Origin: Owenia fusiformis
Taxonomy: Eukaryota
DNA: 64,000 nt
NCBI GenBank assembly: GCA_903813345.2
Contig: CAIIXF020000001.1
Coordinates: 5,022,001-5,086,000, forward strand
Direction: 5' to 3'
The notes beneath the pieces were generated by a model. The model made no database searches and was not told the DNA's origin. It saw nothing but the letters and a program-made list of their open reading frames with translations. The translations under genes and the position numbers were made by a program. Below, piece by piece: positions 34,346 to 62,074 of the stretch; the first letter of the stretch is position 1; each line of letters starts with the position of its first letter.

Positions 34346-37300
34346 TAACTACTCAGTTCACGTGTTTTCTATTGTGCCGTTAATCTCTAAACTTTCAATT
34401 AAAGTTAAAATTTGATCTCCCATTATAAATAATGTATATGTTTTTTATTGCAATAACAGCATCGATAGTCATTTCAATTTTATGCAAAGTCCGCAGTTCT
34501 ATTACTTAACAAAGTTGCGTCTTCTCAATACATTTTGTAGGATTATTAGAGCAGCGACCTATCCTCAGTTTGGAAGTCTGAACAGAAAAGGCTCTTTCCC
34601 TGACCAGAACCATGACGATATAAACAATTATATATGTTTAGATTAAAGTGGAAGTCCAAACCAATGTTTCAAACCGTGACATTATGCATCCGGACATAAA
34701 TAAGTAAATAGCAAATTCAACAAGATGCAGAAGGAGTCGTTTACTTACTGTATATGTAAACATATTATGTTTGAATACAAAATATAATTAAAAAATACAA
34801 TTAACATCTCTGTGAGTCTATTTGGTCACGTTAAAACACAAGTAAAATTAAATAAATTTGTATATCCCAGAACAGAACACTGAGACAGAAGGGCTTCAAG
34901 ATGCAGATGTGCGTGCATGATCCTCCAACTGACTATAAAATAAATACTAGAGGATTATTTTTATATATCGAGTCTTGTGATTTCATAATATCCTTCTTAC
35001 TGATATTTATATTCTTTCAAGTCAACTACTTCCACTACGAGGGCAATTATCTGTATATTGGCTTGGGTTTCGTACCCGAGCATTTCCGTTGTTTATGTTG
35101 GTATGGCCAATAAAGTTCGATAAATAGCGGAAGAAAGATCAACGATCGAATTCATTTATTCAGCGCGTTCCTTCTAACAGAGGATGTATTTGTTCTGGTC
35201 TACGGGACAATTATTTCTCGTTCAGATGTGGGTATCACTCATCACAGAGGCACAACATGGCCTGGCTTGTTTTCTCTAAAAACACATCGAAACATCGCCC
35301 ACGTAACTCGAGACAAAAGTCAAAATCTGCACACCAAATGAACATGTTTTGCAGGTCCTTTTGAACCAAAACTTCGAAAAGATAAAATATATACGCGTGG
35401 GACTCTCAGTTGAAATGATGAGGATTCTTAAGAAGCGTCCTATAACGCCTGGTAATCCTATATCAGATGTGATCACAGAAATTGTTTATAGCAACGTATC
35501 ACCCTACCCCCTCGACCAAACCGTCCACTGACAACACGATACTCATGAAATCATAAATCTTATATTACACTGATCATGATGAGAAAAACTACGAGGCAGT
35601 TTTTGAAGATGGTTCATCATTGATACATTGTTCCTGGAACTAACTCAAATATTTATCTTCCACCAAACAAATTGCTTAAACTACCACTCGAGCATCATTC
35701 CTGAGGAATCAAAGATTTTCAACATATTTGATGCTAGATTGAATTTTGCTTACAGTCGTGTTAGGAAACATAATGACTTTTCAATGAGGGAACCGTACGC
35801 TGAACATTTCCGTATGGGCCTTTCAGAATATATGTATTTAAACTCTTGTTTAGAGGTATGTGCTTGTTAAAAAGAAGAGATTTAGAAATGATTGACACGG
35901 TAGCAATGGTGCGTTCACCTGTTCATGGCACAATTGTGGCGTTGTTTAACTCAAACTTTTAAATCTATTTCATGATAAAATTCGCAAACATAGGTTAAAA
36001 CCATGCAAACCAGCTTGTAACTAGTTTGTATCTGAACTAAATAAAGAAAATGAATATTTTGTCATAATAAAATTCAAATTGATGGTATGAATTAAAACAT
36101 TGAAAAGGAAGATCCTCGTTCAATTTCAACGGTCTCCAACTGTCAATATTAAGACAAAAATCTAAATAGACTATGCTAAAAATATATTTTTGAAACATTG
36201 CGTCATATCTCTATGAAATTATCGGAAACATGGAATTTATTTCAGCTAGCTCCAAGAGGTCAATTTGCATCATCTGCCAAACACTTGTATCAATAGCAAA
36301 TCCAGCTGTAAATGACACTCTATATTTCCATTTTGAAACAGTTTTTGGGAATCGCATTACTAAACATTGTGATTCTTGTAGCATTCGATACTGCACTGAA
36401 ATTATCATAAATCTGCGTTGTTCAGAACATTTATGAATCGAAGCACTGGGTTCGCTAATGATGGGATCTGTGAAACAGTGAACAAAACAATATTTTTCTT
36501 GAAAACAACGAACCAATGTGTGATGTTTCAAAATGTAAAAAGACGTTTCAATCGATGCTCTCAAATGGTGATTACATAACATTTAAGAAAAATAAATGCG
36601 CGTCAGTCTCAAATATTTCGTGTAGGAATAAGCTGCTGACACCCGTTGACACTAAGATGGCCATGGTGATAATGACATGAACAAAACGATTCTGACATTG
36701 GGTTTTCCAATATCGTCAGCTCTTCAACCATTTTGAAATACTTGATTTCCTCGATTTTAACTGTTTTAATGAAAATCTTTCAATGATTCAATTGCGTTCG
36801 TAGATCAATCAAAATACTAGTATCAGCTCTGGTGATACAGATTTACCTTAAAAGAGATCTTCAATGGCCCAAGTTAATCAATTACAGAGATAAATTGAAA
36901 CTTGGAAAGTTTAAAAAGAGGAGAAAATGTAGATATTTTCTTAGGCAATATTTTGGGATTATGCATTGACCTTAAATAAATGATAAATCAGAGTCCGTCT
37001 CAGGCATTATATGATTAGGGACCCGTGCAGGCCGTGGTCAAGAATTTAAAATAGCCAAGACATATTTGAGTTAAATGGGAAATGCATGCTATCATAAGCT
37101 AAGTTTACAGTTTTAATTTAAAGATTCTGAATTGGTTGAAATGAGGCGCATCGTGCCAAAACATTTTTACTTCTCCATGCTCTAATGTATTGAATGTAAC
37201 TGTTTGTTCATATAGCTTTATTTTAAAATCACGGTAAAATTATACAAGATTTCATCTTTTCTTTAGAAACGATGAGGAATATGTGAGTAATGTGTATCTT

Positions 37301-37780
37301 TATTTTATGAACGCTTGGATCTACGAAAAGTTTAGGCAGATATTTAGACTGCTTCTGATTGGTTGGTTCTGGCTAAAATAACACCTATGGTCTATGCCTA
37401 ATGACAGGATCCACAGCTGCCCTTCTCGTTATCTCGCCAACGTTCAACAATTTGTTACAGAGCGATTTCTAACTTACTTCTAAACTCAAAGTTTTTAAAC
37501 TTCTATGATAATCTTTATGATAATATATCGATGATTTCTCAACATGTAATGGATTCTTGTGGTTTTTGTCCTGGCGATTAGGAACTGATTTCTAAGTAAG
37601 TTGAAGAAGACATCGACCATCCAGTCGTAGCGCATCAGGTAGATGTAAAAATCAATGAGGCCAATATGAAAACAATGTAAAAGAAAACTACATGTAAACT
37701 AAATAGTGGAACTTTTTCTTCCCATTTTCACAATTACAAAATTGGATTGGATCAACAAGTCGTGGATTCTACGGACAGTC

Positions 37781-38207
37781 ATGAACGCTCCCACACTTCA
37801 CCACTACCAGTCGCCCTTTTCTACGAACTGGCACCAGGCCCCCGGGCTTCAAAGGACATCTATATCATCTCTGTATGGAGGTGGTGGCTTTCCAAGCTAC
37901 CATTCTGTGGCAGACTGGGGATTAAGTCACAATACTTCAACATCAAGTATGAGCACAGGGGGACACAGTAACAATACAGCGGCACATCTACTCTCCAGGG
38001 ACCACCCCGCTTCCGAGTTTCTCGCCACTGCACAATCGCACCCAGTCAGTGCCTCCCATGGACACTTGTCGTCAGTTGACGTAAATGCTGCAACAGTTCT
38101 GGGCTACAACAATCCTCTCGAGTCAATGTTTAACGCACAGTTTAATAAAACAAGCATCCCACTGTCACCAAAATCCACAACAGCCTCGTCAGATTCAAAG
38201 TCAGCAG
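37781..38207 (+). CDS. Mox: Mox/Meox homeobox protein, exon 1 (MNAPTLHHYQ...SSDSKSA)
   Basis: Ser/His-rich ORF; first in-frame ATG at 37781; CAG|gtgag donor in phase 1 fits exon 2. The start codon and the link across a 13.6-kb intron are inferred. Confidence 0.8.
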
Positions 38208-38652
38208 GTGAGCCTATGTTAAAACTCACACCAGAAATATGTTACTATTACACAAAAAGTTGATTAGGCTAGCTAAAAACATTATGACATCGCAAATCCT
38301 GCGGTAAAATGATTGAAAATTAAATACAGATTCATACAAATGTACTAATATACATGGTGTAGAAATCAAAGAACCATGGAATATTAATGCAACAATCATC
38401 CGAGAAAAAAGGCTCTGAATGTCGTTTATATTTCTGCCGTAACTCATTCTGAAAATGCCACTTCGGTCTAAATACTCTAGTTCAAGAATTTCTGAAATTA
38501 ATCTCAATTATGAAGTTATCTGACATTTTATAAACACTTTTTGAGGATAATCGATTTTCTCCTTTACAGATACCACTTTGAAAATGTATTTTCCCGCCAA
38601 TTTCAAAATACGCATTTTTTTTTTAAATGTAAAATGTTTTACAAAAAAATGT

Positions 38653-39627
38653 AAAATATGATTCGAATGAGCATTAATAAGAATTTCCGTGTACAAGAGG
38701 TTCGTTAAATAAAAACAAAATTCAAATTACAAAATTCAAATCACTTTTCTCCGTTTGGGTACGTCGGATATACGAAAGCTATTTATCTTATGTGCTTATT
38801 GCTTTGATTTATAAATCAACACGAGGAGCGATGTGTAGTTGATGAATATAATTTGTTGTAGAATTGGAGTTTGCAATAGTCCTAAAATCAAAACTTTGTT
38901 TAAAAACATCTTTAAACCCGAATTAAAGATATAGCAGTCTGATAAGAATCTTACCCTTTATGTTGTTATAAAATAGCCCTCCATTTATAACAAGCTAAGG
39001 CAGCTGATAATACATCAATTGCAGTTTTTAAGAGTACATTAATATATAAACATCAGTTTGCTTATATACCTAACATCATGAAAAGGGACATGGATTTTCT
39101 GAATTTCCATCCAAATCAGAAATATATTTTTGAAAATATGAAAATATGATTCGAATGAGCATTAATAAGAATTTCCGTGTACAAGAGGTTCGTTAAATAA
39201 AAACAAAATTCAAATTACAAAATTCAAATCACTTTTCTCCGTTTGGGTACGTCGGATATACGAAAGCTATTTATCTTATGTGCTTATTGCTTTGATTTAT
39301 AAATCAACACGAGGAGCGATGTGTAGTTGATGAATATAATTTGTTGTAGAATTGGAGTTTGCAATAGTCCTAAAATCAAAACTTTGTTTAAAAACATCTT
39401 TAAACCCGAATTAAAGATATAGCAGTCTGATAAGAATCTTACCCTTTATGTTGTTATAAAATAGCCCTCCATTTATAACAAGCTAAGGCAGCTGATAATA
39501 CATCAATTGCAGTTTTTAAGAGTACATTAATATATAAACATCAGTTTGCTTATATACCTAACATCATGAAAAGGGACATGGATTTTCTGAATTTCCATCC
39601 AAATCAGAAATATATTTTTGAAAATAT
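38653..39627. repeat. Direct tandem duplication, 488-bp unit x2
   Basis: Sequence from 38653 repeats from 39141 with no differences seen; AAAATATG microhomology at the junction. Confidence 0.95.
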
Positions 39628-41981
39628 ATATCGACGGACCAATGATGTGAATTCCAAGAGTTTATATATCACGGTTGTATATTCCAGTTTTGAACTTTGC
39701 TTCAATTTTAAGTAAATTTAAAAACAGTTCAAACTCAGCAATTATGTTGAGCACTGTTAAGGCGCGTAAACAAAAGTCTTTCAATTAAATAATGTGTCTG
39801 CCTTCATTGATATTCAATATAAAGTGATCTACATTCTAGTTTATTTTTTCCATAGTAAATTAAAAGCAGGATCAAAAATCGTTTTCTCATTACCGGTCAT
39901 ACAAATTCAAACATAAACATGCGGATAGTTATCCATTGGGGATATAAGGTTGCTAATCTTTTGGAGGGTAGTTTAGATTATGGAGTGATCCAACCCAACC
40001 GTAACGATGGCGAATTATAAGCCGCAAAAAAGCGCGTGATTTACAGATTGGAGTCATTGATGCCTGACGAACTAGGTGGTAATGGAGAGGCTCTATTTTC
40101 TTTAGCGTAATTGGCCGAGGTACAAGGGACCATGTGATATGTGAACGGGGAAACGAGAGAATCGACATATTGTGTAAACTCTCGGGCTCTACTTAATTAG
40201 TGTATGTAGAACTTTACCAGTCATACACATCCCGATATATCGTTTTACTTTCAAAATAACGATAATGATACATAGAACGAGAATGAAAACAGTACCCCAG
40301 TCCCCCACGACGCTGTGAAAGTTTCATGCAACTTTCTCCGGGCTATTTTTGCAAATAATTGGCCTACTAAGGTGTTTCCTGAAGTAAAACAAATATGTTG
40401 CATAAACCTCCCGGTGTGGTCAAAAAAAGATCAGGGATATCTGATGATGGGCACCACTGTGAGCCTTTCGGGACAGCACACGCCAGATGTGGGGAAATCA
40501 TTTTGATTGCATCCCGTTAATAGTGTCATTAATGTCATCATTAATTTGAATATCGAAATGGGATTATCATAATTCTAAACAATCACATGTTAAGTTTTAT
40601 TTCAAAGTTTAAGAAGCTTCCATATAGATTTACTTTTTAGTTTTACCATACCTAGATCTGCATGTAGATGGATGCATTTAGAACAAATTATTTGGGGGTG
40701 TGACCTGATTATCTCAAATGGCTCTATCTACACGCTAACTAATCTTGAAACGGTCGAAGAACAACCCAAACAGTGTCTGCGACGACAGAGGTACATTTAC
40801 GGGTAAGATAACCAGGAAATATGTGTCCCATAATGCTAGTAACTCACTCAAAACATTCCACGCAAGTACAGACCACAAGAGCTGTTGAAACCTGACCAGA
40901 TTTATAGCCGAAAAAGTATAAGATATGATTGCAAAATATGCCCTACAATCTCTAAACTCTGACAATCAGGCAGTGAGCCACTGGGTGAAAAAGACCAATA
41001 TTTGTTTTCTGCGCAGGTTTTCTGCGCATCTTCTTTCGGCTGAAATATTTAGGCTATTTTCATCCCGAAATACTCTCCAACTATCAAAGTACTCGTAACC
41101 TACGTCTGGCGAACTTATTGAAGAACATTTTAAGACCGAATTCGTGGAAATTGATCAATTATATCGAGTATAACTTGCCGATTGAATTTTTTTTCGAAAA
41201 ATTGATCTTCCCTTTTTCGTAGATTTTGACTAAACGCCGACTCTGCCCCGATTTTATTTTTTAACTAAACGATTGCCATTAATGTCATGTTTCCAAATAA
41301 CGTAAAACCACAAGTGAGCCTTGAGTGGCCCGATGAAGATACACTTTTTCTTTTTCAGTTTTGTAGATTTATCGAAAAAAACAAGATGGCGGCCGAAATA
41401 ATTTTTCGAAAAGTCCAATTCAGAATATATTTTCTTTGATACTAACATAAACAGAGTCGTATTCAATTTTTCGAGGTTATAATTACTAAATATAATGTTT
41501 ATAACTTCTATTCCAGCACCAGACGAATGCCTAGGTTCGTGAATCGTGTAAAAATCGTCCATGATTGATTATTTCAATTTTTCAAGAATTTTTTTAGAAT
41601 GTTTTTGTCATTATCCGCTTCGTACATGTCATACCATCAAAAGACTAAAATTGTCAAATGATATATTGTTATTCTTCAATTAGTGTTTTGAAAACGGTTA
41701 TCGTACACTATAAAAAAGTTCTATATGTAGAGTTTTCAGGTGAACCATGGGTTCCAGATGGTGGTAGTCCATGGGTGAACAGAAAGTAGAAAAGTCAAAA
41801 CTGACTGGGAGTCATGTACACCACAGAGTGGGTAAAGGCTAGAGACCAAGAACTGAACCAAATAATAACGACAAAACAATCGATTTGGACACCAAGGGCT
41901 ACTCTTTCCATCAAAAAGTTAATGTTTTCTTGACATAGACATGTAGCACTGGGGCTAGTGCAGTAGTGTGAAGACTAAACT

Positions 41982-42469
41982 AGCATTTCATATTATCAGC
42001 ATATTGTGCACTAAGAAAGCAAGGGGATTCAAATTCAAAAATATTTCTCTATCTATGTATGCGTACAATACTGAAATGCTATCCTACATGGATATTATAA
42101 CAGAATAAAGTATTTGCTTAGTTCATATACAAAGTTATATATATTTATCAAAAGATCATGATTTCCATGTCTTTGCTAAGCTTTATTTCATGGAATGTTA
42201 TCATTATATATTGTGATATACTGCAGCATTTCATATTATCAGCATATTGTGCACTAAGAAAGCAAGGGGATTCAAATTCAAAAATATTTCTCTATCTATG
42301 TATGCGTACAATACTGAAATGCTATCCTACATGGATATTATAACAGAATAAAGTATTTGCTTAGTTCATATACAAAGTTATATATATTTATCAAAAGATC
42401 ATGATTTCCATGTCTTTGCTAAGCTTTATTTCATGGAATGTTATCATTATATATTGTGATATACTGCAG
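41982..42469. repeat. Direct tandem duplication, 243-bp unit x2
   Basis: AGCATTTCATATTATCAGC... starts at 41982 and again at 42225; no differences seen. Confidence 0.95.
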
Positions 42470-45400
42470 TGAAACTGGTAAAAAGTTACATATTTCAGTA
42501 TTTGTAAAATCTTTGTGAATACTGAATAGTATACAGATTCATATATCATTAATGCAAAATAAAAAAGCAGTTGATTCTTTTGGGCTCAAATGTACACACA
42601 AAACATAGCACCTTTCATACAAATGTTCATGAGCTATTTGAAACCTGTATAAAGCAAAAAATAAAACAATACTACATTTGCAATACAAAAAACTTCCTAA
42701 ATGCCAATTAGCATGTTCCCATACCAAATAATTTTTACAAAGTACTTGTTAAGTGTATTTTCACCCAAAAGAAATACCAAAATGTTCAAATATAGGTCAA
42801 ATGTCATCATTTGAAGCAAAATATAGAAAATGCTAGAACTTGGGTAAAATGTACTATAGTAGCCAATGGCACACTTATGTGAATAACAGTACAAAGCAAT
42901 AATGAATTGCCTCAAATACCATGATTGTTTAGAGAATTGCACTTTACTTCAGTATTCGTTACACACATGAACATCTTTCTTTATATTTACTTGCATAACA
43001 TGGCTTTACTTGTAAATACCCATATATCTGTAAGCCATAGATATACCATTGCATAAATTTACATATATTTGTACCTAATGCTTCATGTTATACTAATATG
43101 TTATTCAAAATTTTTGTATTGACTTCTGACTATTTCTAACTACTGAAACTTATTTTCTCGCTTACATATTTTCATTGATTTAATACACGTTATATAACAC
43201 AGGGCTTAATAATAATAACCGCCTGTAAAAAAGGAGTAAATGTTCATATAATCATCTGAGCAAGATCATCTGTCATATAAATTTAGCAGAATATGCATGT
43301 ATTGCATTCAGGTATATATTTTTGTAATTGCACAGATTTGAATATAATGTTATTTTACTTAAAGTTTGAGAGTGATATCTTTATATACTAGATTTATATG
43401 TACATATACATTGTTTATATTGCAAAACCTTTTAATACCTGGGGAACCTTTAACATTATTTACCTGTATAACAGTTTGACACAGTTTGGACAGTTTACAC
43501 ATTCTTCAAATAACAGTAGTGTTTACAAATAAACATGAATTCTTGTCTTGATTAGAGCTGTTTTAAGTATGACATTTCCTGTTTTACAAAATTATATGTT
43601 GCACTTGCAAATATAAGTTTACTGTAAAATACAAATGCATTATATATTCTCATGGTGCATTAAATCTGCAATTTCATGACTGTTACAGACAGCTAGACAG
43701 CAAACCTAGTAGTAAAAAAAATTAGGACAGCTTACACTAGACTAGACTGCAGTACAATATGTTCTACTTTACTTGTACACATATGTGCAAACATGGCAAG
43801 GTTTTTTCACTTGAAAATCATGGACAAAAATGATTCCAATTTATAAAATAAAAAAGCAGCCCATGACTAGTTTGGCTGATTCTGAGTCCTGACTCTCTAA
43901 TTAATTGACGGATGCCTTATATATGCCTGATATACCTACATGTGTATCAAATAACAAAGAAAATATCAGAATAAACACTCTTAGTCATATCAACATAAAT
44001 TTGTTTATTTGGTCAAACATATTCAAATGAGATTCATCATTTTCAAAAAATTAGTAAAATAAAATCTTAACTTCTTACTTAACATAACTTTCTTATAACT
44101 TTGTATTTATGCAATGGGATATCAAACACGTAAAATATGATCTAGGCTAATTAGTAATTACCCACAATTACACAGTCCAGTGTTGAGTTGTAGTGAAGCA
44201 CATGACTGCTGTGGGTTGTTTCTTGTCCAGCATTCAGGCATTACAACAACTGAAAGAAAAAAGTTTTTAAATAATAATGCAATATACATGACAATAATGT
44301 GTTAATTGTATGGATTGTTATTACTAGTTATTACGGACATTAACAAGCCACGGGCTATTCTTTTTTGAAAACTATAATAAAACAACTTGTAAAAGTTGAA
44401 TTAAATTGGCAGATATAAGTCATACATTAGAAAATTACCAACCAAAATTACCAGTTTAAGCATTGGTGTGACCACTGATGAGTTTCAAAGGCACAAATCA
44501 TAAAGACAATACAATATTTATTATTTTCTAATAAGTATTATGTTGATCGGAAATTTTTTGCTAGATCCCACATTAAGCGGCCATTTTGAATTTTACGAGG
44601 CCTGAGACAGAAAAATTATTAATTTTTGCAATATACTTTAGATTTTTTCTAATTTGAGTATAATAAAGCTATACTTCAGAAAGATCTCAAAATTGACAAA
44701 AATTCCTGTTTTCTGACCCCCATACACAAAATTAAAATTCATACACTTTAATACAGTAGAACCTTTACTAGTAAACATGTCCTATTGAATCCCTACCAAC
44801 AGTTAACCTTTCTAGTTAGCAAGCGAACACTTCTCTGTCAAATCCATTCCATCAGTTAACATTTATATTTGGCAAAAGTTTTTTCTCCCATTGAGTCCCA
44901 TATTAAAACTTATTAATTTTAATACAGTAAAACCTGCGCTAATGAACACCTCTCTATTGAACCCCTGTAGACAGTTAACAAATATTCATTGTGCACAGGT
45001 TTTACTATATTCACATACTTAACAAATAACTACATACCATTAATCATCAATGAATATGTGGCACTAAACAATCAGCAAACCCCAATAGATCCTGCCTATC
45101 ACCACTGCATCCCATCTATTTCCACTGCTTCTCACCCCCTGCTTCCTGCTGGTCCATGTGTGGTCCCCATCTTCGGTTAGTCCATGCCCACCTATTACCC
45201 GCCTTCCAAAACCTAAATTTAACAGAAAATATGTTACTTAAGTTTAAAAATGGAATGCATGCTTTTGATATCTATAGTACACAACCTTAAAATCTGTAGT
45301 AAATATGTGCAACTGATAAACAGGTGACTTGAACACAGAAGTATACTGAACAATACAGGTTGACACAATGTTATTTTTCCTATGATGCATAGTCCTGGTT

Positions 45401-46521
45401 AATACAAAAACAATCAATCCTTATATTATTTCAGTATTTTAGAGTAAAAACTGTATTCTGTCACATAGTATTCAGGGGTGATGCTAGAATTGCCAACAAA
45501 CAGGTACAGGTATATCTTAGCAGGATTTTATTATTATGTTTTAAGAATATAATCACCTCCAAGTCCAGTATGAATTACTGATCAGCTTCTCCAGCACAGC
45601 ATAACAACAGGAAAGTCCATCCAACCTTAAACAAACAAAAAAGAATGATAATAACATTGCAAAAACCAAACTAGATATTCTCCCTTTTTAAGCTCTGATT
45701 CAAATGAAGCCAGAAGGGCTCACATTGGATATTTTACCCAAAATGTTTAAGGACCTAGCAAGAAAAGAGTACAGTTAAAGAAAACAAAGAATGAAATCCT
45801 GTGCTAAGGGCTGATCAGACCCCTCCCTTCCAAGGCGATTGCTCTACCACCAAGCTTTTCCCTATCAACATTACATATAACTGAAAACTAGACCCTAAAC
45901 TAGACCATACTACTGTATATTTCATATTTATAATTGAAAAACTGAAAGGTGTATACTGGTATATACATATAAATGTGTATTTTGATTTCATATTCTTCAG
46001 CAAGTTTTAACATCAAAATCATATAGGCTATTAAGAATCACATGTTCATGTTTTAAGTGAGCTTGATAATCTAAGGTTGGATTATATGTAAAACTCAATT
46101 ACAATTTTATATTTTCACCAGTTATTTTCACAAAGTCGCCTTTTGTTTTTTCAAGTTTTCCATGTTAAATTTATGATTTCCATTAATTTAGCCTGTTGTT
46201 TTCATTTACAGCCTGCTGTGGGAAATTCTAGTGAAACCTCTGTGTATGAGTTGAAAACCAATATGTTTCTACAATGACTCTAGAATACCTTTGCTTGTTT
46301 GCAATTTTATCATTCTTGGATTCACCACTTAAAATGCATAGAAATAACATACCTTGTATAGCACCTAGAGTGATAATACAGCATTGCCTTTTCTCAACAT
46401 CCACTGGTCAAATGAATGATAATAGGATTGAGGCCCACCTGAAAAAAAAGAAAAATAGTAATAATTTGAAATAAGAAATTGATTACATGAACAAATATTT
46501 CCATAGCCTGGCATATAACAT

Positions 46522-46796
46522 ATGTGCGCCATTCCCAGACATTTCGAGAAGGGGGCATCATCAAAGATTTTTTGGGCTCAAAAAAATTTTGGGCCCGAAG
46601 AAGGCCTTAAGGCCCAAAAAAGTGGGCCTTGAGGCCTTATTTTTGAATTCAAGACTAAATTCTGAAGAAAATGGCCCTCAAAATTTGGGCTTTAAGGTTT
46701 CAGGGGCCCAAAATTTTTTCCCGCACGAGCACAGAATTTTTTTTCTCTGACTGGAAATCTGGCCCGCCCCCTTGATGTTTCCCAGATCCGCCCCTG
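46522..46796. mobile_element. GC-rich short insertion (MITE-like) ending GATCCGCCCCTG
   Basis: Sharp composition shift with many GGCC/GGGCCC motifs; CAGGGGCGGATC-type terminus on the minus strand; left end and TSD unclear. Confidence 0.5.
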
Positions 46797-47131
46797 ATGT
46801 ATGTGGATACAGAAGATAAGCCAGCCGAGCAACAACAAAAAATGGCCCTTTTGAGGACCAACTCATACTACCAAAAGAGCATTGTATTTATGAATTAGGC
46901 TAGGCCAATATATCTACATAGGCTTATGATTAAAATCAAATAAGCCTACATATGTGTTGGCTTAAGTGTGAATGTTTGACTGATGAGAGACAATTTAAAA
47001 AGTATGATAATTACCTTTGATGGTGATGAGTGATCGATAGCTGCATCTCGTATCACATAACTATATGGTAGTATATCTGAAGACCACACCTAAAAAACAC
47101 ATGAAACTTTCAATTTTGCACATGCTATTTA

Positions 47132-47955
47132 TTGCAAGACTTATGCCTGGCACAACCGTCACCATGTTATTAAGTGTTTTTAAGTTTCGCAAGGATCCTG
47201 CCATGACTGTGGTATTGTTATCATGAAAGCGCTGGTATAAACGTGACAATGCTATATTATATTGCAATGCATATCATGACCGTGGTAATGTAAAAGCCTT
47301 ATTTTTACAGTGACAATGTTCACATTCTTGAATGAAATTAGAATTTCATTTTGTTGAAATGAATTATGAGTTAAAGTAGTAGTACATGTAGTAGTTGTCT
47401 AGATTAACATATTTAAGGTAGATAAACGATGAAAATTTTCATTACAGTATTCTCATGCTACTAAATGTAATTTAATATAACCATTGTTACGGTCATACTG
47501 TGCTTAAACATCATTACCACGGTCATGACAGGTTTTACAACCATTGCCTCAGTCATACAAGGCTTTTACATTACCATGGTAATGACAGGCCTTGCAATAT
47601 AATATATCAATGTCACGGTCATATCAGGCTTTAACGTTACCACGGTCACGACAGGCCTTGCAATATAATATAGCATTGTCGGTATACCTACCCCCATAAA
47701 TGTAGGGTTATATTGAGTTTTTTTTAAATTTAAGACATTTGTTTCTCAAAATAATTATTTTGACAAACAAATGTCCTAAATATAAAAAAAAAATCAAAAT
47801 AACCCCACATTTATGGGGGTGGTACTACGGTCCTGGTAGGATCCTTGCGAAACTTAATAAAAACACTATAACATGGTGACGGTTGTGCAAAGCATAAGTC
47901 TTGCAACAGATAAGGTCTCAAATTTTGACGGTTGTGCCAGGCATAAGTCTTGCAA
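47132..47955. mobile_element. Foldback/MITE-like inverted-repeat element with a nested ~140-bp palindrome (47686-47824)
   Basis: TTGCAAGACTTATGCCTGGCACAACCGTCACCATGTTAT...TTTCGCAAGGATCCT pairs with 47837-47905; the terminal 28 bp is duplicated at ~47926-47955; inner ACCCCCATAAATGT...ACATTTATGGGGGT. Confidence 0.8.
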
Positions 47956-50863
47956 CAGATAGGGTCTCCAATTTTGTTGAAAATCGGATCAAGAACTTTG
48001 GCTTTTAGTACAAACTCCTTCAATTTATTCGATAAATTGGTAAACCGGAAGTCATATTATCGGTTTTATTTCGTATATATCTCGAAAGATACCTGATGCC
48101 CCGTCAAAACTACTTGAAAATAACGAAAAACGATATGTTTTGAAACGAATTTCAACCATTTTGAACACCAAAGTTTAATGGCCCGCTGAAGATATGGTTT
48201 GCAGCGTACTCTGGTCTCATCGACTCAAAATTTATGTTCGTTGTTCGGACCCTCCAAAAACATACTTCTTTTCAAAGCATCGCAACGTTCTATACACCAA
48301 ATTGAAGAAGAATTTCTTACCTTTTAGAAAATTCAGGTCGCCATATTCATTCTACATGGAGGGGATCCCCTTTTGACTAGAAAGAGGTCGGGGTCGAGAT
48401 CTCGAAAAGTATCGCGAAGGCGCGAGATGTGCCAAATTTTAAAGAGATTTGGAAAAGAAATCTCTCTAAATAGGGCTTGGCGCAGATGACGGCCGATTGC
48501 CTGAATGTGTTAAATTTATTGAAGCACAGTTGGTATAAAGATAGAAATCCGATTTATAATTTCAATCCAGATGCCTAAAATTTAATAAAGAATGGACTGT
48601 TGTTGTGACCTGTAGTCATATTCTCCTCTCCTGGTGAATGGTTCAATGATACAATGGTACAATACATCTCCTCTAGATCTTGATATACATACACTTGGTA
48701 TAATAAAATGTTTGTAAAATGCAATCCGAACTTTTTATGAGAAATATGTCATTGAATTCGATATTCAACATATTTTTTATCTGTGTTCTATTTTCTCACA
48801 TTCGCCAAATTGTGTTTTCTATACTTTTCATGGTTAAAGTTGTCATCTTAGTGTTACTATCGTGATTAAATTGAAGTTGTCTGTATAGTTTTTACGTTTG
48901 CTTCTGCATCTCGTTGGTAAATAAAAGTTAATTTCCTTGGGGTCAGAATCTAGTACAGATGAAGGTCCGATCTTTTAAAGAAGTTAAATGAAACTATCGA
49001 AGAGGATATATGTGTACTCATTCAAATAATACACACAGACTCTACCCTCGTGTAATATGGGTTTGGGGTAGAACATACATTCATGCATTTATAAATCTCC
49101 ATTTTTGAATTATACTCTACAATTCTTTATTGCTTGAATAATGAACTGTCAACATGCTTTTCCAATGTGTAGCTAAAGGAACAATCCGGAAAATTGGTAG
49201 ATTCGATGCACCTTCACAATTCTTTACATTTTGCCCGAAAACATTTCTTAAATAAATGTGAATGAGTTCTGGATTATGATCTATCTTTAACATATCACAT
49301 ATAAGAAAATATGGACTTCAACAACAAAACTACGGGGAATTAACGCACAGACAAAATCAAAACTTCTCGTAAACTAGTGAAACAGATATCAATACATATT
49401 CCCTATGAATTAACTCAAATTGAAGTAAAACAATCTTACATTTTTTTGTTTATTTTGGAGGAAGCGATCTAGTCTAAAATGTATTTGCTCAATTTATGAA
49501 AGAGGATTCTGAACTATAGTAGCGGAATCTGAAATTGAATCTTTGGTTTATAGTTCCATCCGATGCTTCGTTTATCAAAGTTTTGATTTCATCATTGATA
49601 TACGTATTTAATTAAAATTTAACATAAGGTTAAAACCATCATTTGTTTCACAAAAACACTTCTAGGCATGTAAAAGTTAAAACACTAAATTATAGTTTAT
49701 CCAGTTGAGAAAAGTAACTAAAGAAAACAGAGAGATAAGAGTAACTATGCTGTCAACAGACTCACACCATTGTAACACGAAGAAACTGCTCGTAGCAACC
49801 AGACCAGCGAAAACACAACTGAATTTGTCAACACTGCGCTCATATTTCTTCTGGTTTCCACACAGTATCAATCTAACGTGTTTATTTTATAAAGTCTAGC
49901 AAATCGGAAATGGACTTTTAAATGGGAACGTGTGGACAGAACAGAACAAACTGTACTGTAATTTTCCGGATCGTGTTTCTAATGGGATACTTGGGGTAGT
50001 ACGTAATACTCCAGTGTGAGATTAACTACCAGACGTTTCACATAAATCAACTAATGGATATGCCTCTCTGACTAGCGATAATTAATAAGAAATTGATGCC
50101 GCGTACTTAAAGAAAAGTTAATGTTTCTTATCTTAATACCATATCTTGTTTTCACACATTTTGTGTTAAGAAGGTCTTTAGGTTGAGTGGATAAAATGCT
50201 GAGTTTCTGTCTTGATGGAACGGGCCACCAATAAACAACCTCTGACAGATAAGAATATCTGCTAATTATAACTAATTCGAAAAATATTTACAACCCAAAC
50301 ACGTGTATGAACCATTTGAAAAATATGATGAACGATTTTGCAGATTTTCGTATGATTATCTTGACTGACTATTCGTCAAAATTGAACAGCAAGATTGCCT
50401 CCAAGACAATTGCATTATTAGCAATATAAAACACATCGCGATATCCTTCTGAAATCACTATTTTACTGGATATCGAAAACCCCATGTAAAGTAATCGTCG
50501 CGTTTTTAAATCTTTAAATAAAAATCGTACTAAAATCGTACTACATCATCTTCCAACCGGTTTAATCAACATATATTGGAACGTAATGATTACGTAACAA
50601 GTGACGACTTCTCTATATACTTAGAATGTTGATTTACGTTCTCATTTAACATATATTATTTATTTTTATATCACTATCATATTCCTCACTCTCTGATTGG
50701 TCCATGTAATACACGTGACAAGCGATATCAAATGATATTCACCGGTCCGACTATAAGTCCAGTGTAATTTTAATTTTATATATACCCGGGAGTACATTGT
50801 TATGATTAATTAGACATCAATATTTTGTTATTTCATCAATGTGAGTGAGGAACAAAATGATAA

Positions 50864-51006
50864 AACAAATATTTAATTATATTTTCGGTGAATACCTGTG
50901 ACTCTTTCTCAAGATTATATTCCACTAGCCCTTTGGGCTTCGTGCACGTGGAATATCACGTGTGAAAGATGCACGAGTATTCACCTCAATAGAATTAAAT
51001 ATTTGT
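50864..51006. repeat. Degenerate ~140-bp hairpin in Mox intron 1
   Basis: ACAAATATTTAATT..GGTGAATAC..TCTTTC..ATATTCCAC..AGCCC TTT GGGCT..GTGGAATAT..GAAAGA..GTATTCACC..AATTAAATATTTGT. Confidence 0.75.
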
Positions 51007-51783
51007 ATGATAATATGTCCGGGTCAAATTAAAAATATATCTCATCTTTACCAAAAAAATACCGCATGTGAAACAAAAAGTCGTATAACTAAATTGAACC
51101 TCATTGATGACAAAATAAATAATAGAGAGTAAATGTTAAACTAACTATTAATTTAGCCAATTGTTTAACATCGCTTATTTAAAACCGAAGGTATTACATA
51201 TTTGTTTTTTCTTATTTTTGAACAAAAATTATTATAACATCGTGTAACTATAGTAGACTGAGAAACAAATACTAATTAAAACTAATCAAATTGGGACCAG
51301 AGTCTCATTAGAAGCTAATTACATTATATTATCTGGTGGGGTCATTGCATTTGTTTGATTTTTTATTTGGCATATAACCATAGTGTAACATTTAATAAAG
51401 ATGAAACAAATTGTTGAGTGTTGATATCCAAATACAGGAATAAAAATTTAAAAGTCCAAAATTAACGGACTGCCTCAAACTTTGCGTTTGCGATTGTGAC
51501 ATTTGTGATAATGAAAAGTAACGTGAGAACTTCCCAAATGATTATGGCCCAACAGAATATTAAAATAAATGATTCAATGGTTCCTGATGGCATAGGGGAA
51601 GTTAGGGGAAAAAACTAAGAAAAAATTCAAAATATCTTTTAGCCCTTTGTAATTTCATTTACGAAAGTCTAGATAAAACCATTTTGTGACTTATGATATA
51701 TGCAATACCAGGTAGTTGTACATAGGTATACATTTTAAGATTTTCTAAAATCCCTTAATTATTTTACAATTTTGTGACTTCAG

Positions 51784-51959
51784 ATTCCAATTCGGATAGC
51801 TCCTACCAGTTGGACCTGAGTTCAAAACCAAGAAAAGAACGCACTGCCTTCTCAAAGCACCAAATAAAGGAGTTAGAAAAGGAATTTTCAGTCCACAACT
51901 ATCTGACTCGACTGAGGCGGTACGAAATTGCCGTGGCCCTTGATCTCACAGAGAGACAG
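51784..51959 (+). CDS. Mox: Mox/Meox exon 2, homeodomain helices 1-2 ([59 protein letters not shown])
   Basis: KPRKERTAF and [14 protein letters not shown] are diagnostic for Mox/Meox; cttcag| acceptor, CAG|gtatgt donor. Confidence 0.97.
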
Positions 51960-53887
51960 GTATGTGGATGGATGTTTTATTTAGCACTTCAAAGAGAATA
52001 AGTAAAGATCTGAAAAATGCAAACTTCTAATTAATTATGGTGACATATTCTCTAATTTTCATGTGTAGATAAAAATGTTTGAAATCTATCGAAAGAATGA
52101 TGGATTTTGTTTTGTTTAATAGTAATAAATAAATTTGCAGAACTATGTTAAATAATCTAAATAATCTGAAAATGTTTGTGAACAGTATCTAATTCGCAAC
52201 AACAAGTTTTAAAATGATATACTACATGTATATAAGAGGATTTCCAATTACTAAAATTACTTGAGTCATCCGATCAATTACTTATGTCTTTTAGTATAAT
52301 GGTTATCTAATATGTTCCTAAATACATTAATTACAGCGGGCCTTAAATGAGTAATAACATTACATATCAAAATTTCTAAACTTTTGATAGATAATTGAAA
52401 TCTTATTTTTGCTACAAGTTTTAAACGTAATTAATATTATAAACGGAAAGTACTGAGTGCTTTTTAAAATCATGTATTTACATTAAAAGAAGTAATGCTT
52501 ATTGGTAGTTGTTAGAACAATTTAATACTTCGAGTTATTATTTGCTTGTTATGAGTAAAATAATTGAACCTACTACTAGTATATGAAAAGTAACTATTAT
52601 TGAGAAGTAACTTGTTCTGCATGTTCATATTTTGGTGTCAGAAGCAATTATGGATCATCCAGAGTCTGCTAGCAATGGGGATACTATTGAGTTTAAAATA
52701 GGGTAAAATAACGCTAAGAGATTTTCAGATTTTATCAATATAATATATATAGGTGAAGTTGAGTATAAAAATGAAGTATTTTTGCCCCATTGAGTTAGAG
52801 ACTTAGTTGACAGACGTTTTTTCAATAAAATAGTGAAAATGAAGTGATAGTATTTGACAGTATTTGCTTCTACCTTTTTAAAATTTGCCTCGCAAATTTA
52901 ATATTTGCCTCGTCAATTTTTAGATTCTGGAAACGTCCCTGTCGACTTTATTGTCAGAAAATAATGTCTAAGAATTATTTAATAACCAAATTAGAAACCC
53001 AAAGTTCCAAACCCATTAAGAAAAGCCTTAATGTTCGAAAATTATATTGAAGTAAGAAGTTGAATAAGAAGTTGTATTTTATGTCTATTGCTTCATTTTT
53101 TAACTCTGACCAATGTACATGTGCATCTACAGTATAGCTTGTCAAAAGTTTAAAGCAAGAATAACATGCGCCATGTTTATGGCAAGAACGAAGTTACCAT
53201 GTAATGAGAAGTCGAGCACACATGGTCCAAGTCATGTTGCTTTCAACACCCCACCTGGTAAAGCTATCCAGCCATGATAAACTCCTATGTGCCTATGTCT
53301 TACCACATACTATATCAATCTATAATATACACGAGGACAAGCGGGTTAGTTGACGTACTGATGTTTCTAGCACGATTTAGTAGAAGAGTTCACGATTTAG
53401 TAGATACAATATGAATGCAGATTTTATGTTTAGGTAGAATGACAAGCACGCAGTTTGCCATAATGGATCTGGAAATTGTTGTTGCGAATTAGATAATTAC
53501 CAACGTGTCGTTCTAATCTTACATTTATGTTTTAAGAAGTATATGGAAATACATGTTTGGTTACTATAGCAACAACATGAAAGAGATCAATTTAACGAGC
53601 TTAATTGAGTATGGGGTATCATAGAGCGCAGCGCAACAGGTTTCAACCAAGTTCTCAGCTGAGAAAACACCCAACAACCACATAAGTTTGCAAATTAGGA
53701 ACAGCTTTGCTAGCAGCTGTACATTCAACATTTAACTCTAAATCCCGACAATTAGTCAGTCATCAAGTCGTATATTTTTGATTTGGCCACTCATTAGCAC
53801 CAAATTAATTATATCGCTTGATATTATCACATTCTTGCTTTATTGTTGATGACAACTACTACTCCTTATTTTATGATCAAATGGTGT

Positions 53888-54598
53888 CAAGGATAGGTAT
53901 CGACATGGTGAACTGAATTCAACAATGTTTTTCTCTAAAACCAATTATTGAAAACATTCTGTAATAAAACGGTCCTTTATGTAATGTTGACTGATTGGCA
54001 ACAATTTAATGCAAAAATTATTTATATATATTTTATATAACTGTTTTTGTTTTTTAGTGCAATTTTTTCTTGTTCCTTTCTACCAATTCTTGAGAATGAA
54101 ATAAATTGTCTTTCCGAACCTTTTTGTTGAACAATATAACATTTTCTTAGACCTCTCAATATTACAGTTATACAAAGGAAATTTTGGTTGATTGTACAAA
54201 AAGTATGGAAAAACTTAAAACAACCCTCAAAATAGATAAAAATGAAGATACACATTTTATTTCATTAACAAGATACTTTTTTAAAATCAACCAAACTTTC
54301 CTTTATACAAATATTGAGAGACCCTAAACACATTTTGTTTACGTCGTTTTGTTCCAATTAGGTTCGGATAGATGTTTCATTTCATTCCGAACATATGATA
54401 CCAAGAACAAAAGAAGTGTCTGATGTGTCTAAAACAATATAGAGAAAATGATAAAAAAATATGTATTTCAAATTATAATGTTACCATCCAAAAGATGACT
54501 ATTAAATTGACGATGTGTAAAATTTTCAGAATGTTTTGATAACTGGTTTAAGAGAAACGCGTGTTCAAAAAGTTCACCATATCGATACCACTCCTTTG
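53888..54598. mobile_element. ~710-bp MITE, copy 1 (Mox intron 2)
   Basis: TIRs CAAGGATAGGTATCGACATGGTGAACT / AGTTCACCATATCGATACCACTCCTTTG; internal inverted repeat (~54105-54192 vs ~54285-54375); reverse complement of 57078-57804. Confidence 0.88.
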
Positions 54599-55730
54599 TT
54601 GTTTTGAGATAGATAATCTTGAAAAAAGCATTTTTAAACATCAGATGGTCATTTCTGTAAGCACTTTCATAAAGGAAATAAATAAAATGTACATGGTGCT
54701 TTATCAGTCATATTTTTCGTATTATACCAAAGATTGAGAAGTAAATTCTGTTATATAAACTTTTACCAAATGGAGAAAATTCCCTAAGAATACTAGTATT
54801 ATATAATAGACCATAACATTTAGCCTTTTACAATCACCCATAAATATGTCACACATCGTATACATCTGTTCTAAATGTTATTTTATGTTATATATTACCA
54901 TGACTTTGTTACTGAACAAAATGATTAGTTACTATTCTATGATGACTATTCGAGCGGTAAAATCATCTGAAATCATGTTTTAATTCGCTTTTGGCACAAC
55001 AATTTTTTGCTCGTACGTGAATGTTTATATCAAACTTCCCGGTGTCAAGGTTTAAAACAGCCTTTGCAACAGGTATAAAGCATTTAAACATAGAGGGGGG
55101 GGGTCATGGGGAAAATGCAAATATTCGCAAGCTGTAATTAATGACTTATACTCAGCTCAGTGAATTCCGTAAGACAGTGATTTAACATTTTAACACGGAT
55201 AATGATAATATTAGAAAAATATTGCTTACTCTATGTCAAAAACTATATTCACAAATCAACTTAAGTATTTGAAAATCAAAATGCTTTATAAACAAATGCA
55301 TGATAAATTAATAATAGCAGAATATCAAGAGAAATTCAAATTAGGTCACTTTTCATCAGAAAATGGAATCTCATCCTAACTTTTTGTATCCTGAATTTAA
55401 TGGTTCAAATTTTATTGTATGTCTTGCGTTTGATATTTTTGAAATATATTTATCCACCACTGTATTATGTACATGTTTCTAAGAAATTAATAGAGTAAAT
55501 GAATCCATGTCATTAGTAGTTAATTTTGACCTTCTCAGAGAGTAAGTATCATGGACCAGATATGCCAGCGGACTCGTGGGAAGTGAAAACCAAGATCTGA
55601 TATGTTAAACTTATGTTCAAAAATTCAAAAAGTGTGATTTGAACAACTATTTCCAAAATGCTAAAATCTATTTTCTAGGAGCCAATCTTACATTTATAAA
55701 CATGTTTAATGACATAACTTTATTTTGCAG

Positions 55731-55883
55731 GTTAAAGTCTGGTTTCAAAATCGCAGAATGAAATGGAAACGTGTAAAGGGGGCGACACTAGCCAAAGACA
55801 AGGTGACAGGACAGTTGAAACCACTAACGATACCAGCCCCCAACGCCACTATACTGGCATCTGATAGTGAATCACCTAGATGA
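55731..55883 (+). CDS. Mox: Mox/Meox exon 3 (VKVWFQNRRMKWKRVKG...SESPR*)
   Basis: ttttgcag| acceptor; recognition helix WFQNRRMKWKRVKG; TGA at 55881-55883. Not in the ORF track. Confidence 0.97.
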   Translation, partial: VKVWFQNRRMKWKRVKGATLAKDKVTGQLKPLTIPAPNATILASDSESPR

Positions 55884-57077
55884 CAGTAGGTTAGACAATA
55901 AAAAGGATGACTGCTTTCTCATTTCGGTTTCTCTTGGACAAGGAGGGGCTTACGTGCATCCAAAGGCCAAGTTGTATGAATATGTATTTCAGTTACATGT
56001 GGTCTGCTGAAGATGACTCGCAATCGGAATGATAAATACTACCATCTTATGAAACGGAGAAGATTGAGACAATTGTAATGTAACATCAAAGTATTGCCCA
56101 CGGATGCTTACATTGAAATCGTGTTATATTAGAGAAAACAGAATAATGGGCAATCTACAGTCTGTACATATTTAACAAGCGGATAACCATATATTGTGAT
56201 AAAAAATATTCTTTTTTCTGAGTTCTCTATTTTGTCCTTTCATATGTTCAGGGCATTGAGGGCATCTATGATAAAATGTTTGTTGCGAGGGTGGTCTCTA
56301 ATTTTGATTACATTATATAGATGTTAATGTGCGAGTATCTTGGCAAGCGCCTGCTCATTCCTGATGAGTTATGATAATTTATACTTCTCAACTCGAGGAT
56401 GACGAAAAGCGACTCCAGAATTGACAATATTAAACAGGTATGCCTGTCACTGTATTTCCACAATCATTTCTATGACAAAAATGATGATGCTTGGAGACGA
56501 ACAGGTTCAGATTAATGAGACTTTGTTATGACAATAGAAGTTATAAAACATGTTTTTGTAGAAAATGCAGATATGCACTCTAAAATCACGGTACCATACG
56601 GTATATTATGAATATGGTATCGTACGGTACATACGGCATTATATAAGTCAACTGTACGGTACCGTACGATACTATATTCAAATTACCGTACATTACCAAC
56701 GCCAAACCGTACCGTACGGTACTGTTAGATAATATGGAGTTTAAGCTTGTTTTTTCACAACCTAAACGTGAACGGAAAATATTTAGCGATGCATTTGTAT
56801 GGGCGATTGGTCATACGTATAGGTTGGCGTTTCGATTTTATTTGCGAGCTTGAACTCCCTATTGGCTGTGTACTGTACGCATGGCATCAAATGAATGTCT
56901 CTTGTGATATCAGAGCAACTCAACTGTGTTCATGTTCATATATTGTTGGCACACTCTGCAGCTGGCCGGTGATGCCAAATGTGACTTCATCCTACACACA
57001 TGTGACGTTTTAAATGAAAGATGGTTGAATACAACAGGTCTGGTTGAATATGAGTTAGCCATATGTGAAATATAACT

Positions 57078-60562: not shown

Positions 60563-62074
60563 CGAGGGTTGATCCAAAAGTTCTCCACCGTTTTATCTAA
60601 AAAAATTATTTCTTGGTGAATTTTGTTCAGACTTGGTCAGAAGCAACATGAATATGATAGCTTGGTATTGTATTAATATCATTGAAAAAATATAATATTA
60701 ACTATGTCATTTGGTTACCATAGTAACAGGACAACGAGGAAGGCGGAGCTGAATATAATCACTGTTTATTACAATTTTTTGTCAAACAACATGGTATTAT
60801 TACAGAGTTTTAACAAGGGGTTTTAACATTAATGAAGGCTTTTATTTGATGCAATATCAATGTTCATTCTCCTTCAAAATGGTCCCCACCATGGGCTATG
60901 CATTTATTGCATCATTTTATCCAATTATTGAACACATGCCGAAGTCCATTCTCAGCGACTGAATACACACTGTTGGTAAAAGCTACAATCATCGACTCAT
61001 CATCTGCAAAACGAATCCCACGGAGGGGCTTCTTAGTGTAGCCAGTACTGTGGAGATGGATTGGATAGGCCAAAGAAGACAAAGGTACAGAAATCTACAT
61101 CTAAAGTGATGTTTATCATCTTTTTCGACATCCACAGAATCATCCTCGTTCACGCCGTGCCAACTGGAGTTACTGTGAATTCTGCATATTATTCAAAGGT
61201 AAATTGTGAATCCCAGGTTTTGGACCCGACTTGGACCCTGTGTTTTGGACACATGACTTCTTCAATGTCTTAGTTGATAAAATATGCCTTTCCATGGTAC
61301 CTTCATAGTTATACAATATGGCATGTACATGTATTTGGGTCTATTCGTGATAATAGAAAATGAACTGAGGTATCATAATTGATGTGTTTCAGTTACTAAG
61401 GAAGAATCTGAAAGATGCCATCAGGAGAAAGAGGCCAGAGCTTATTGCAGATTGCTTCTACTTCCATCATGACAACGCCCCTGCCCACAGAGCTAACATT
61501 ACAATTGAAGTTATACATGAGCATTTACAAGCAGAACTTGTCAAGCATCCCCCTTATTCCCCAGATACAGCTCCCTGTGACTTCCACATATTTCCTGAAG
61601 CTAGGAAGCCCCTCCGTGGGATTTATTTTGCAGATGATGAGTCGCTGATTGAAGTTTTTACCAACAGTGTGTATTCAGTCGCTAAGAATGGACTTCGGCA
61701 TGTGTTCAATAATTGGATAAAACGATGCAATAAATGCATAGCCCATGGTGGGGACTATTTTGAGGGAGAATGAACATTGATATTGCATCAAATAAAAGCT
61801 TTCATTAATGTTAAAACCCCTGGTTAAAACTCTGTAATAATACCACGTTGTTTGACAAGAAATTGTAATAAACAGTGATTTTATTCAGCTCCGCCTACCT
61901 CGTTGTCCTGTTACTATGGTAACCAAATTACATAGTTAACATTATATTTTTTCAATGATATTAATACAATACCAAGCTATCACATTCATGTTGCTTCTGA
62001 CCAAGTTTGAATAAAATTCAACAAGAAATAATGTTTTTAGATAAAACGGTGGAGAACTTTTGGATCAACCCTCG
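60563..62074 (+). mobile_element. Non-autonomous rearranged mariner element with 474-bp inverted arms and TA TSD
   Basis: TA|CGAGGGTTGATCCAAAAG...CTTTTGGATCAACCCTCG|TA; 60563-61036 is the reverse complement of 61601-62074; transposase fragment in the centre. Confidence 0.95.
61037..61773 (+). pseudogene. 5'-truncated mariner transposase (C-terminal catalytic part) split by a GT-AG intron at 61199-61392
   Basis: PKK...KVM..IFFD...G.TVNSAYY then LR..IRRKRP...HHDNAPAH...HPPYSPD.APCDF..F...W.KRC.KCI...GDYFE; splicing AAG|gtaaat...tttcag|TTA joins both ORFs in frame; HTH domains and first catalytic Asp are missing. Confidence 0.9.

Follow-up and report, generated by a model that had tools for sequence, protein, structure and literature searches.

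The window analysed here, a stretch of 64,000 nucleotides of the Owenia fusiformis genome (GenBank assembly GCA_903813345.2, contig CAIIXF020000001.1, positions 5,022,001 to 5,086,000, forward strand), contains a six-exon transcription unit lying antisense in the first intron of a host gene. We take this gene to be Mox (Meox), a name based on the label given in an earlier sequence-only reading and on a homeodomain motif rather than on a database result. The RNA of the unit is very probably a transposase transcript without its coding sequence, produced by a young non-autonomous DNA transposon of the AcademX type, one copy of which lies in Mox intron 1 by chance. A start site 142 bp inside one element end drives minus-strand RNA with five GT-AG introns and an end near 42400. 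An 8.56-kb block that holds the transposase open reading frame (ORF) in an autonomous relative is missing from the window family. If exons 1-6 constitute the 5' leader of the transposase mRNA in the autonomous element, this deletion would have joined the leader to the 3' untranslated region (UTR) and left an abundant non-coding by-product. The family would move by transposase supplied in trans, and the Mox copy would represent a recent, probably polymorphic chance insertion. Most likely, the RNA has no selected host function.

Structure of the RNA

Three raw RNA runs (X18, X19 and X20) and one contig set (X5) were aligned to positions 37300-56200 of the window. Stranded RNA-seq supports a six-exon RNA in all three runs: the junction reads are nearly all first-mate-plus, which in most stranded libraries denotes minus-strand RNA, and the skipped segments are GT-AG on the minus strand. 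Such an RNA had been predicted from the letters alone. All acceptor and donor motifs listed in that prediction are present in the sequence, as are an AATAAA at 44009-44004 and a stop in all three frames of exon 46438-46353. Four of the five predicted introns are exact, namely 47014-46439 (11/23/91 junction reads in X18/X19/X20), 46352-45626 (18/18/63), 45556-45213 (21/19/71), and 45037-44250 (57/39/138). Intron 1 was misplaced: the reads put it at 48320-47090 (9/15/50, 74 in total) rather than at 48092-47077, whose donor 48093 and acceptor 47076 are absent from the 15 of 72 splice joints displayed in the alignment (57 were not displayed); some minor use of these sites, or other minor isoforms, may occur. 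Nor do the reads show the predicted poly(A) end near 43985. First-mate-plus depth in the terminal exon continues past the AATAAA at 44009, standing at 21-85x from 44240 down to 42348 and falling to 1-3x in the next bin, which places the end at about 42400. The 5' ends pile at 48362 (19 molecules in X20), 142 bp inside the element end. The mature RNA is ~2.3 kb long and, by an arithmetic estimate summed over all copies, reaches ~20-70 reads per kb per million. Its parts are as follows.

48321..48362, minus strand: exon 1, from the 5' end pile and junction reads; donor AAG/GTAAGA, at the same position in the autonomous copy
47015..47089, minus strand: exon 2, 75 nt, from junction reads; begins 13 nt upstream of the previously predicted acceptor
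46353..46438, minus strand: exon 3, 86 nt, from junction reads; 70 nt in the autonomous copy and 87 nt in the C6 copy
45557..45625, minus strand: exon 4, 69 nt, from junction reads; 87 nt in the C6 copy
45038..45212, minus strand: exon 5, 175 nt; 176 nt in the autonomous copy; window-private base at 45194
42400..44249, minus strand: terminal exon 6, ~1.85 kb, from read depth, 3' end approximate; leader-side sequence plus the 3' region of the transposase gene
44004..44009, minus strand: first AATAAA, which RNA reads run through; within a 23-nt stretch not in the autonomous copy
42425..42430, minus strand: second AATAAA, adjoining the depth drop; AATGAA at this place in the autonomous copy

The second AATAAA is the likely poly(A) signal of the RNA. 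Exons had been described as richer in GC than their flanks, which holds for exons 3-5 (0.41-0.49 versus 0.25-0.33). On the upstream side of exon 2 there is no such enrichment (0.37 versus 0.38), and none in exon 6 over its initial 265 nt (0.30 versus 0.25/0.32). Past the RNA 3' end, at the far element end (40967-42347), reads of both strands occur at ~1-8x; inward or read-through transcription able to pair with the main RNA is possible there.

A young transposon family

The suggestion that the exons are transposon-borne is borne out: they lie inside a DNA transposon with 13 near-identical copies. The nested repeats noted earlier are located in the introns. The features of the window copy are listed below.

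40967..48503, minus strand: copy of a non-autonomous, AcademX-like DNA transposon; CAGGCA...TGCCTG ends, 3-bp target duplication AAT, length 7,537 bp
48491..48503, minus strand: promoter-side terminus CAGGCAATCGGCC, a short imperfect terminal inverted repeat (TIR), from end comparison
40967..40979, plus strand: far terminus CAGGCAGTGAGCC, a short imperfect TIR, from end comparison
41982..42469, no strand: 243-bp tandem duplication private to the window copy, from copy comparison
47105..47976, no strand: nested palindromic repeat in intron 1, resembling a miniature inverted-repeat transposable element; core 47685-47824; not in the autonomous copy

A DNA search of the same genome returned 11 full-length matches at 96-100%, the window included, together with two copies split by insertions. 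These 13 near-full-length copies lie on 8 contigs and have sharp common ends at window positions 40967 and 48503. The family is ~7.3 kb long, the window copy being longer by its private tandem duplication, outside which it has 17 private differences. Because the 13 copies are only 0.04-0.56% apart (78 pairs), the family must have spread recently. At 12 sites examined for target-site duplications (TSDs), 9 show 4 bp, the window site 3 bp, one site 5 bp, and one rearranged end none. CAGGCA is found at both termini and 9 of the first 13 bases match between them; the ends of the autonomous copy are more diverged.

The core of the nested repeat (47685-47824) forms a near-perfect hairpin of 140 nt (-79.5 kcal/mol, z -15), a possible source of double-stranded RNA in the pre-mRNA of every copy according to the folding model. 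Rfam gave 11 matches at E up to 1, none at gathering score, and 10 of them were microRNA-precursor models on this hairpin. Two loci depart from the simple arrangement. At G000:C10:18827435-18845403 (L037-L039), two head-to-tail copies of 8,985 bp each share one flanking CATA duplication. At G000:C9 ~28.4637-28.4747 Mb (L042-L043), the far end abuts an inverted partial copy (equivalent to window 46020-48209) and there is no TSD.

The autonomous relative and the deletion

An autonomous relative of 18,637 bp with TSDs ATGA/ATGA occupies G000:C1:55241551-55260187. It shares its start region and 10 of 10 splice dinucleotides with the window family, and has the same 3' region downstream of its ORF. 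The retained dinucleotides are not significant as standalone evidence, the background retention being 124/154 for GT and 103/124 for AG. The two elements are colinear on both sides of a single ~8.56-kb gap, at 75-90% BLAST identity, and the block absent from the window family contains an entire ORF of 1989 amino acids on the same strand as the RNA.

43907..43908, minus strand: deletion junction with 2-nt microhomology TC; ~8.56 kb missing, including the whole 1989-aa ORF

The missing block is not flanked by a duplication. At its end stand several degenerate copies of a repeat unit, one of which is kept in the window family. Owing to this microhomology junction without duplication and to the repeat units, the window family is a deletion derivative: ends and flanking internal sequence are common to both elements and the ORF is missing. 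The same two features rule out the ORF block as a nested insertion. The idea that the unit is a decayed gene survives only in this sense: a transposase gene lost its ORF, and the RNA is the untranslated frame that stayed behind. No trace of a former reading frame is left in the exons themselves.

Despite its clean 4-bp TSD, the autonomous copy has asymmetric ends (CTGTC.. / CACTC..). Solo left ends starting with CTGTC or CAGTC occur at C5:22.33 Mb and C11:13.90 Mb. The protein search of the genome gave 96 matches from 116 scored of 147 candidates. Among the matches listed, this copy of the 1989-aa protein stands alone at 100%; the intact relatives closest to it reach 51% and 37-38%. A search for the element ends of the C11:19.95 Mb copy, the closest autonomous relative after this one, did not find them.

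Transposase and superfamily assignment

The 1989-aa protein combines a DDE transposase core, an OTU domain, an XPG-like nuclease, and a CXC motif. A public Owenia fusiformis protein is identical to residues 244-1989, while an exact-sequence look-up of the full protein (P0001) gave no match. The model of the DDE core (predicted local distance difference test score, pLDDT, 76.5) resembles P-element transposase (Z 11.5, root-mean-square deviation 4.4, 267 aligned), with lower scores for Hermes (Z 7.8) and integrases (Z 6.2-8.3). In this region Pfam reports DUF6589, and the Foldseek matches listed are OTU domains only. The C-terminal nuclease model (pLDDT 93) finds XRN1/XRN2 as best Foldseek matches, then Exo1, FEN, and Rad2 (best E 2.3e-5); there is a weak profile match to Exo1 (E 0.39), and phmmer of this region against the PDB returned only alpha-amylase (E 0.11). 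The CXC motif that follows has a profile match to LIN54 CXC (E 0.0015), and Pfam TCR is present in 20 of 84 aligned members, the query protein not among them. Pfam scans of the protein found no helicase family.

Academ elements reportedly (Kapitonov and Jurka 2010, Kojima 2020) combine a DDE core and an XPG-like nuclease in a large protein that has a Cys-rich domain at its C-terminus, an architecture that the one large protein of the autonomous relative resembles. AcademX is defined by an XPG/FEN-type 5' nuclease rather than a helicase and by a C-terminal Cys8/CXC zinc finger. Its TSDs, according to PMC10045372, are of 3-4 bp and are linked to an encoded nuclease. The elements described here share such duplications (4 bp at 9 of 12 family sites, 3 bp at the window, 4 bp at the autonomous copy) and short TIRs. 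Because the DDE core, 5'-nuclease fold, and CXC occur together with 3-4-bp TSDs, the element fits an AcademX-like assignment within the Academ superfamily, made from predicted domains and TSDs. According to PMC5751038, no Pfam model covered the Academ core.

The OTU domain (Z 13.1; Pfam E 1.3e-9) sits, in the predicted structure, inside the RNase H fold, after the first catalytic segment and before the second, and distinguishes the autonomous relative from AcademX. It covers residues 594-741 of P0001 (L045:3663-9629, minus strand), with Cys (DGRC) and His (GHYD) motifs. Pfam OTU is found in 2 of 29 aligned relatives, and the C11:19.95 Mb relative also carries DGRCLF. OTU cysteine proteases fused to a transposition protein are known from Ginger1 transposases and animal Helitron RepHel (PMC2836005, PMC6431247). 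In Ginger1, however, the OTU is C-terminal, whereas that of the autonomous relative lies inside the RNase H fold; the window copy lacks this ORF altogether. No Academ-OTU fusion was found in the literature accessible in part, nor any paper naming Academ together with XPG. The same holds for a five-intron non-coding unit or an OTU in a DDE core, Repbase Reports and most subscription papers being out of reach.

Other related sequences were also encountered. Two intact Academ-like elements of ~15.6 kb (L067-L072; G000:C5:17.84-17.86 Mb and C11:14.70-14.72 Mb) carry 16-bp TIRs CAGCAGGAGATCCAAG and show 4-bp TSDs; their open frames run to 2552 and 2641 aa. At G000:C3 ~0.17-1.78 Mb, many decayed, partly tandem fragments form a cluster, 49-79% identical to the transposase core.

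Coding potential and constraint

The prediction that the RNA is non-coding stands: no frame is kept, and exons are no more conserved than introns. Against the autonomous copy, exons 1-5 show 34 substitutions in 431 positions (7.9%) and introns 199 in 2328 (8.5%; p 0.71); against a more distant partial copy, the values are 22/155 (14.2%) and 79/553 (14.3%; p 1.0). An initial exon-versus-intron result of p 1.7e-6 was spurious, because global alignment had gone wrong across large insertions; local alignments were used instead. Exon lengths differ between copies by 1, 4, 16, and 18 nt, which include non-multiples of three. Exon 4 has only 1 change in 69 relative to the autonomous copy, a weak signal among six exons, and the C6 copy has 8 in 69 plus indels. 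Overall, the sequence gives no sign of either coding or constraint.

It is very improbable that a small protein is, or ever was, encoded in the exons, be it by the longest ORF (65 aa, MLYY...QWK, spanning exons 3-5) or by a second gene that has decayed. Several frames have few stops, and the 65-aa ORF is intact in all 13 young copies; such intactness is expected because the copies are 99.4-99.96% identical. In both diverged copies, however, the ATG is lost and frameshifting indels occur, which also rules out this ORF with possible read-through of the exon 3 TGA. The 34 substitutions show no third-position bias in its frame (11/9/14 by codon position; 12 synonymous, 22 not), and an ORF of at least this length appears in 186 of 1000 local shuffles (18.6%).

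Relation to Mox

The element lies antisense between host exon 1 and the homeodomain exon, without overlapping Mox exons.

37781..38207, plus strand: host gene exon 1, boundaries from sequence, no RNA support
51784..51959, plus strand: host gene exon 2 with the homeodomain, from sequence
55731..55883, plus strand: host gene exon 3, coding part (VKVWFQNRRMKWKRVKG...), from sequence

A specific link to Mox, as originally proposed, is not supported. At the private position 45194, 182 of 187 reads carry the base of the other copies, and at most 5 of 187 fit the Mox copy (2.7%, 95% confidence interval 0.9-6.1%). At 43250, the allele of the other copies is carried by 146 of 153 reads, with 7 fitting the Mox copy, and at 44222 by 229 of 264, a count probably affected by the under-calling of indels close to read ends. 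Since reads at private sites mostly carry the alleles of other copies, the RNA comes mostly from those copies or from insertion-free animals; the sampled animals may lack the insertion, and a share of a few percent may come from the Mox-intron copy. Depth over the Mox exon bins is 0-0.03 in the three RNA runs, apart from 0.5 on the opposite strand in the final bin. In X5, one contig (depth 16.9) breaks off at 40963 with a remainder of 277 letters, and another of equal depth has indels at 48655-48663. This is the pattern expected of an empty site with AAT placed on the right, so the insertion is probably absent in the individual behind X5 and hence polymorphic.

Given 13 loci and few reads from the Mox copy, the RNA is not Mox-specific antisense. 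It is spliced, stranded, and non-coding, like a natural antisense long non-coding RNA (lncRNA); it is not a single-locus, position-conserved one, in view of the 13 copies, the probable empty site in X5, and the lack of exon constraint. A functional antisense regulator of Mox, acting by transcriptional interference or small RNAs, is correspondingly hard to credit. The copy is indeed antisense in Mox intron 1 with intact splice sites, and the 5/187 and 7/153 reads without the other copies' allele leave room for its weak transcription. Such a role is opposed by the near-identical copies on 8 contigs, by at least 95% of reads at two sites carrying other alleles, by the near absence of Mox reads where the RNA is abundant, by the probably empty X5 site, and by the lack of overlap with Mox exons. 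Because multi-mapped reads from other copies are credited to the Mox locus, annotation as Mox antisense is to be avoided.

When a transposon loses its ORF and keeps its promoter, splice sites, and 3' end, that single step can create what passes convincingly for a multi-exon antisense lncRNA of a developmental gene. Being probably polymorphic, the insertion lends itself to a natural experiment on the effect, if any, of an active antisense promoter within a homeobox intron.

Leader or separate transcription unit

In the autonomous copy, five introns and ~6.5 kb precede the ORF, and we infer from the sequence that the leader is spliced onto it. Several points weigh against this reading. No read was seen joining leader to ORF, the RNA reads having been aligned to the window and not to the autonomous copy. 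There are 33 ATGs in the 1,034 nt from the exon 6 acceptor to the start codon, besides 13-16 in exons 1-5; so ATG-loaded a leader is poorly suited to translation, and the ORF could therefore be driven from an internal promoter. Nor are long leaders general, since two other relatives start their ORF only ~1.2 kb from the element end. A single close source of transposase was found; with ~8.5% divergence and termini that differ from those of the window family (CTGTC/CACTC), it is unproven as the agent of trans-mobilisation. Finally, the abundance of the RNA may be compatible with a function.

Some of these points would suit a six-exon unit that is a separate non-coding transcription unit, with the transposase expressed from its own internal promoter and perhaps restrained by read-through. 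The 447 nt of exons 1-5 contain 16 ATGs versus 9.4 expected (p 0.02, one marginal test), and the last 300 nt before the ATG have no acceptor scoring above 9, confirmed acceptors scoring 9-13. This arrangement is nevertheless unlikely. The start of the RNA lies at the terminus that faces the ORF, where transposase promoters are usually found, and there is no exon constraint. No early poly(A) signal is evident in the autonomous copy either, because the AATAAA at 44009-44004 is absent there.

Beyond the preferred reading of a coding-free transposase transcript, a further idea can be entertained, although it is doubtful. An Academ lineage might limit its own transposase by a five-intron, ATG-loaded leader kept across subfamilies 8-14% apart. 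The leader-plus-3'UTR RNA of the non-autonomous family might act in trans on the single autonomous copy, either by factor competition or by pairing with antisense RNA from host genes such as Mox reading through a copy, so that a coding-free RNA would control its own superfamily.

Comparison with known deletion derivatives

Promoter-keeping non-autonomous deletion derivatives are an already known kind. The P-element variant KP encodes a truncated repressor protein, whereas the window RNA has no conserved ORF and belongs to a different superfamily. What is shared with KP and Har-P is that ends and promoter are kept, transposase coding is lost, and movement occurs in trans (PMC6917496); in the window family, such movement is presumed. 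Relative to AcademX, it is unusual that the ORF is preceded by five introns and ~6.5 kb, two relatives of the same genome having only ~1.2 kb there, and that the window family makes an abundant spliced RNA without coding sequence. Nothing matching spliced non-coding leaders or lncRNAs of non-autonomous DNA transposons was found in the literature available in part. Since the family is young and transcribed and an intact transposase matches it, experiments on the little-studied Academ superfamily become feasible, among them on what the long leader and the inserted OTU domain do.

Other features of the window

Two perfect two-copy tandem duplications, at 38644-39627 (488 bp) and 41982-42469 (243 bp), are either recent or assembly artefacts; X5 depth is near zero over 38644-39627. 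Upstream of Mox and divergent from it, a multi-exon gene spans ~2514-30383 on the minus strand, with ORF pieces that resemble what we presume to be NOL4. On the plus strand, 61037-61773 contains decayed transposase fragments with HHDNAPAH and YSPD motifs, which we take to be mariner-like.

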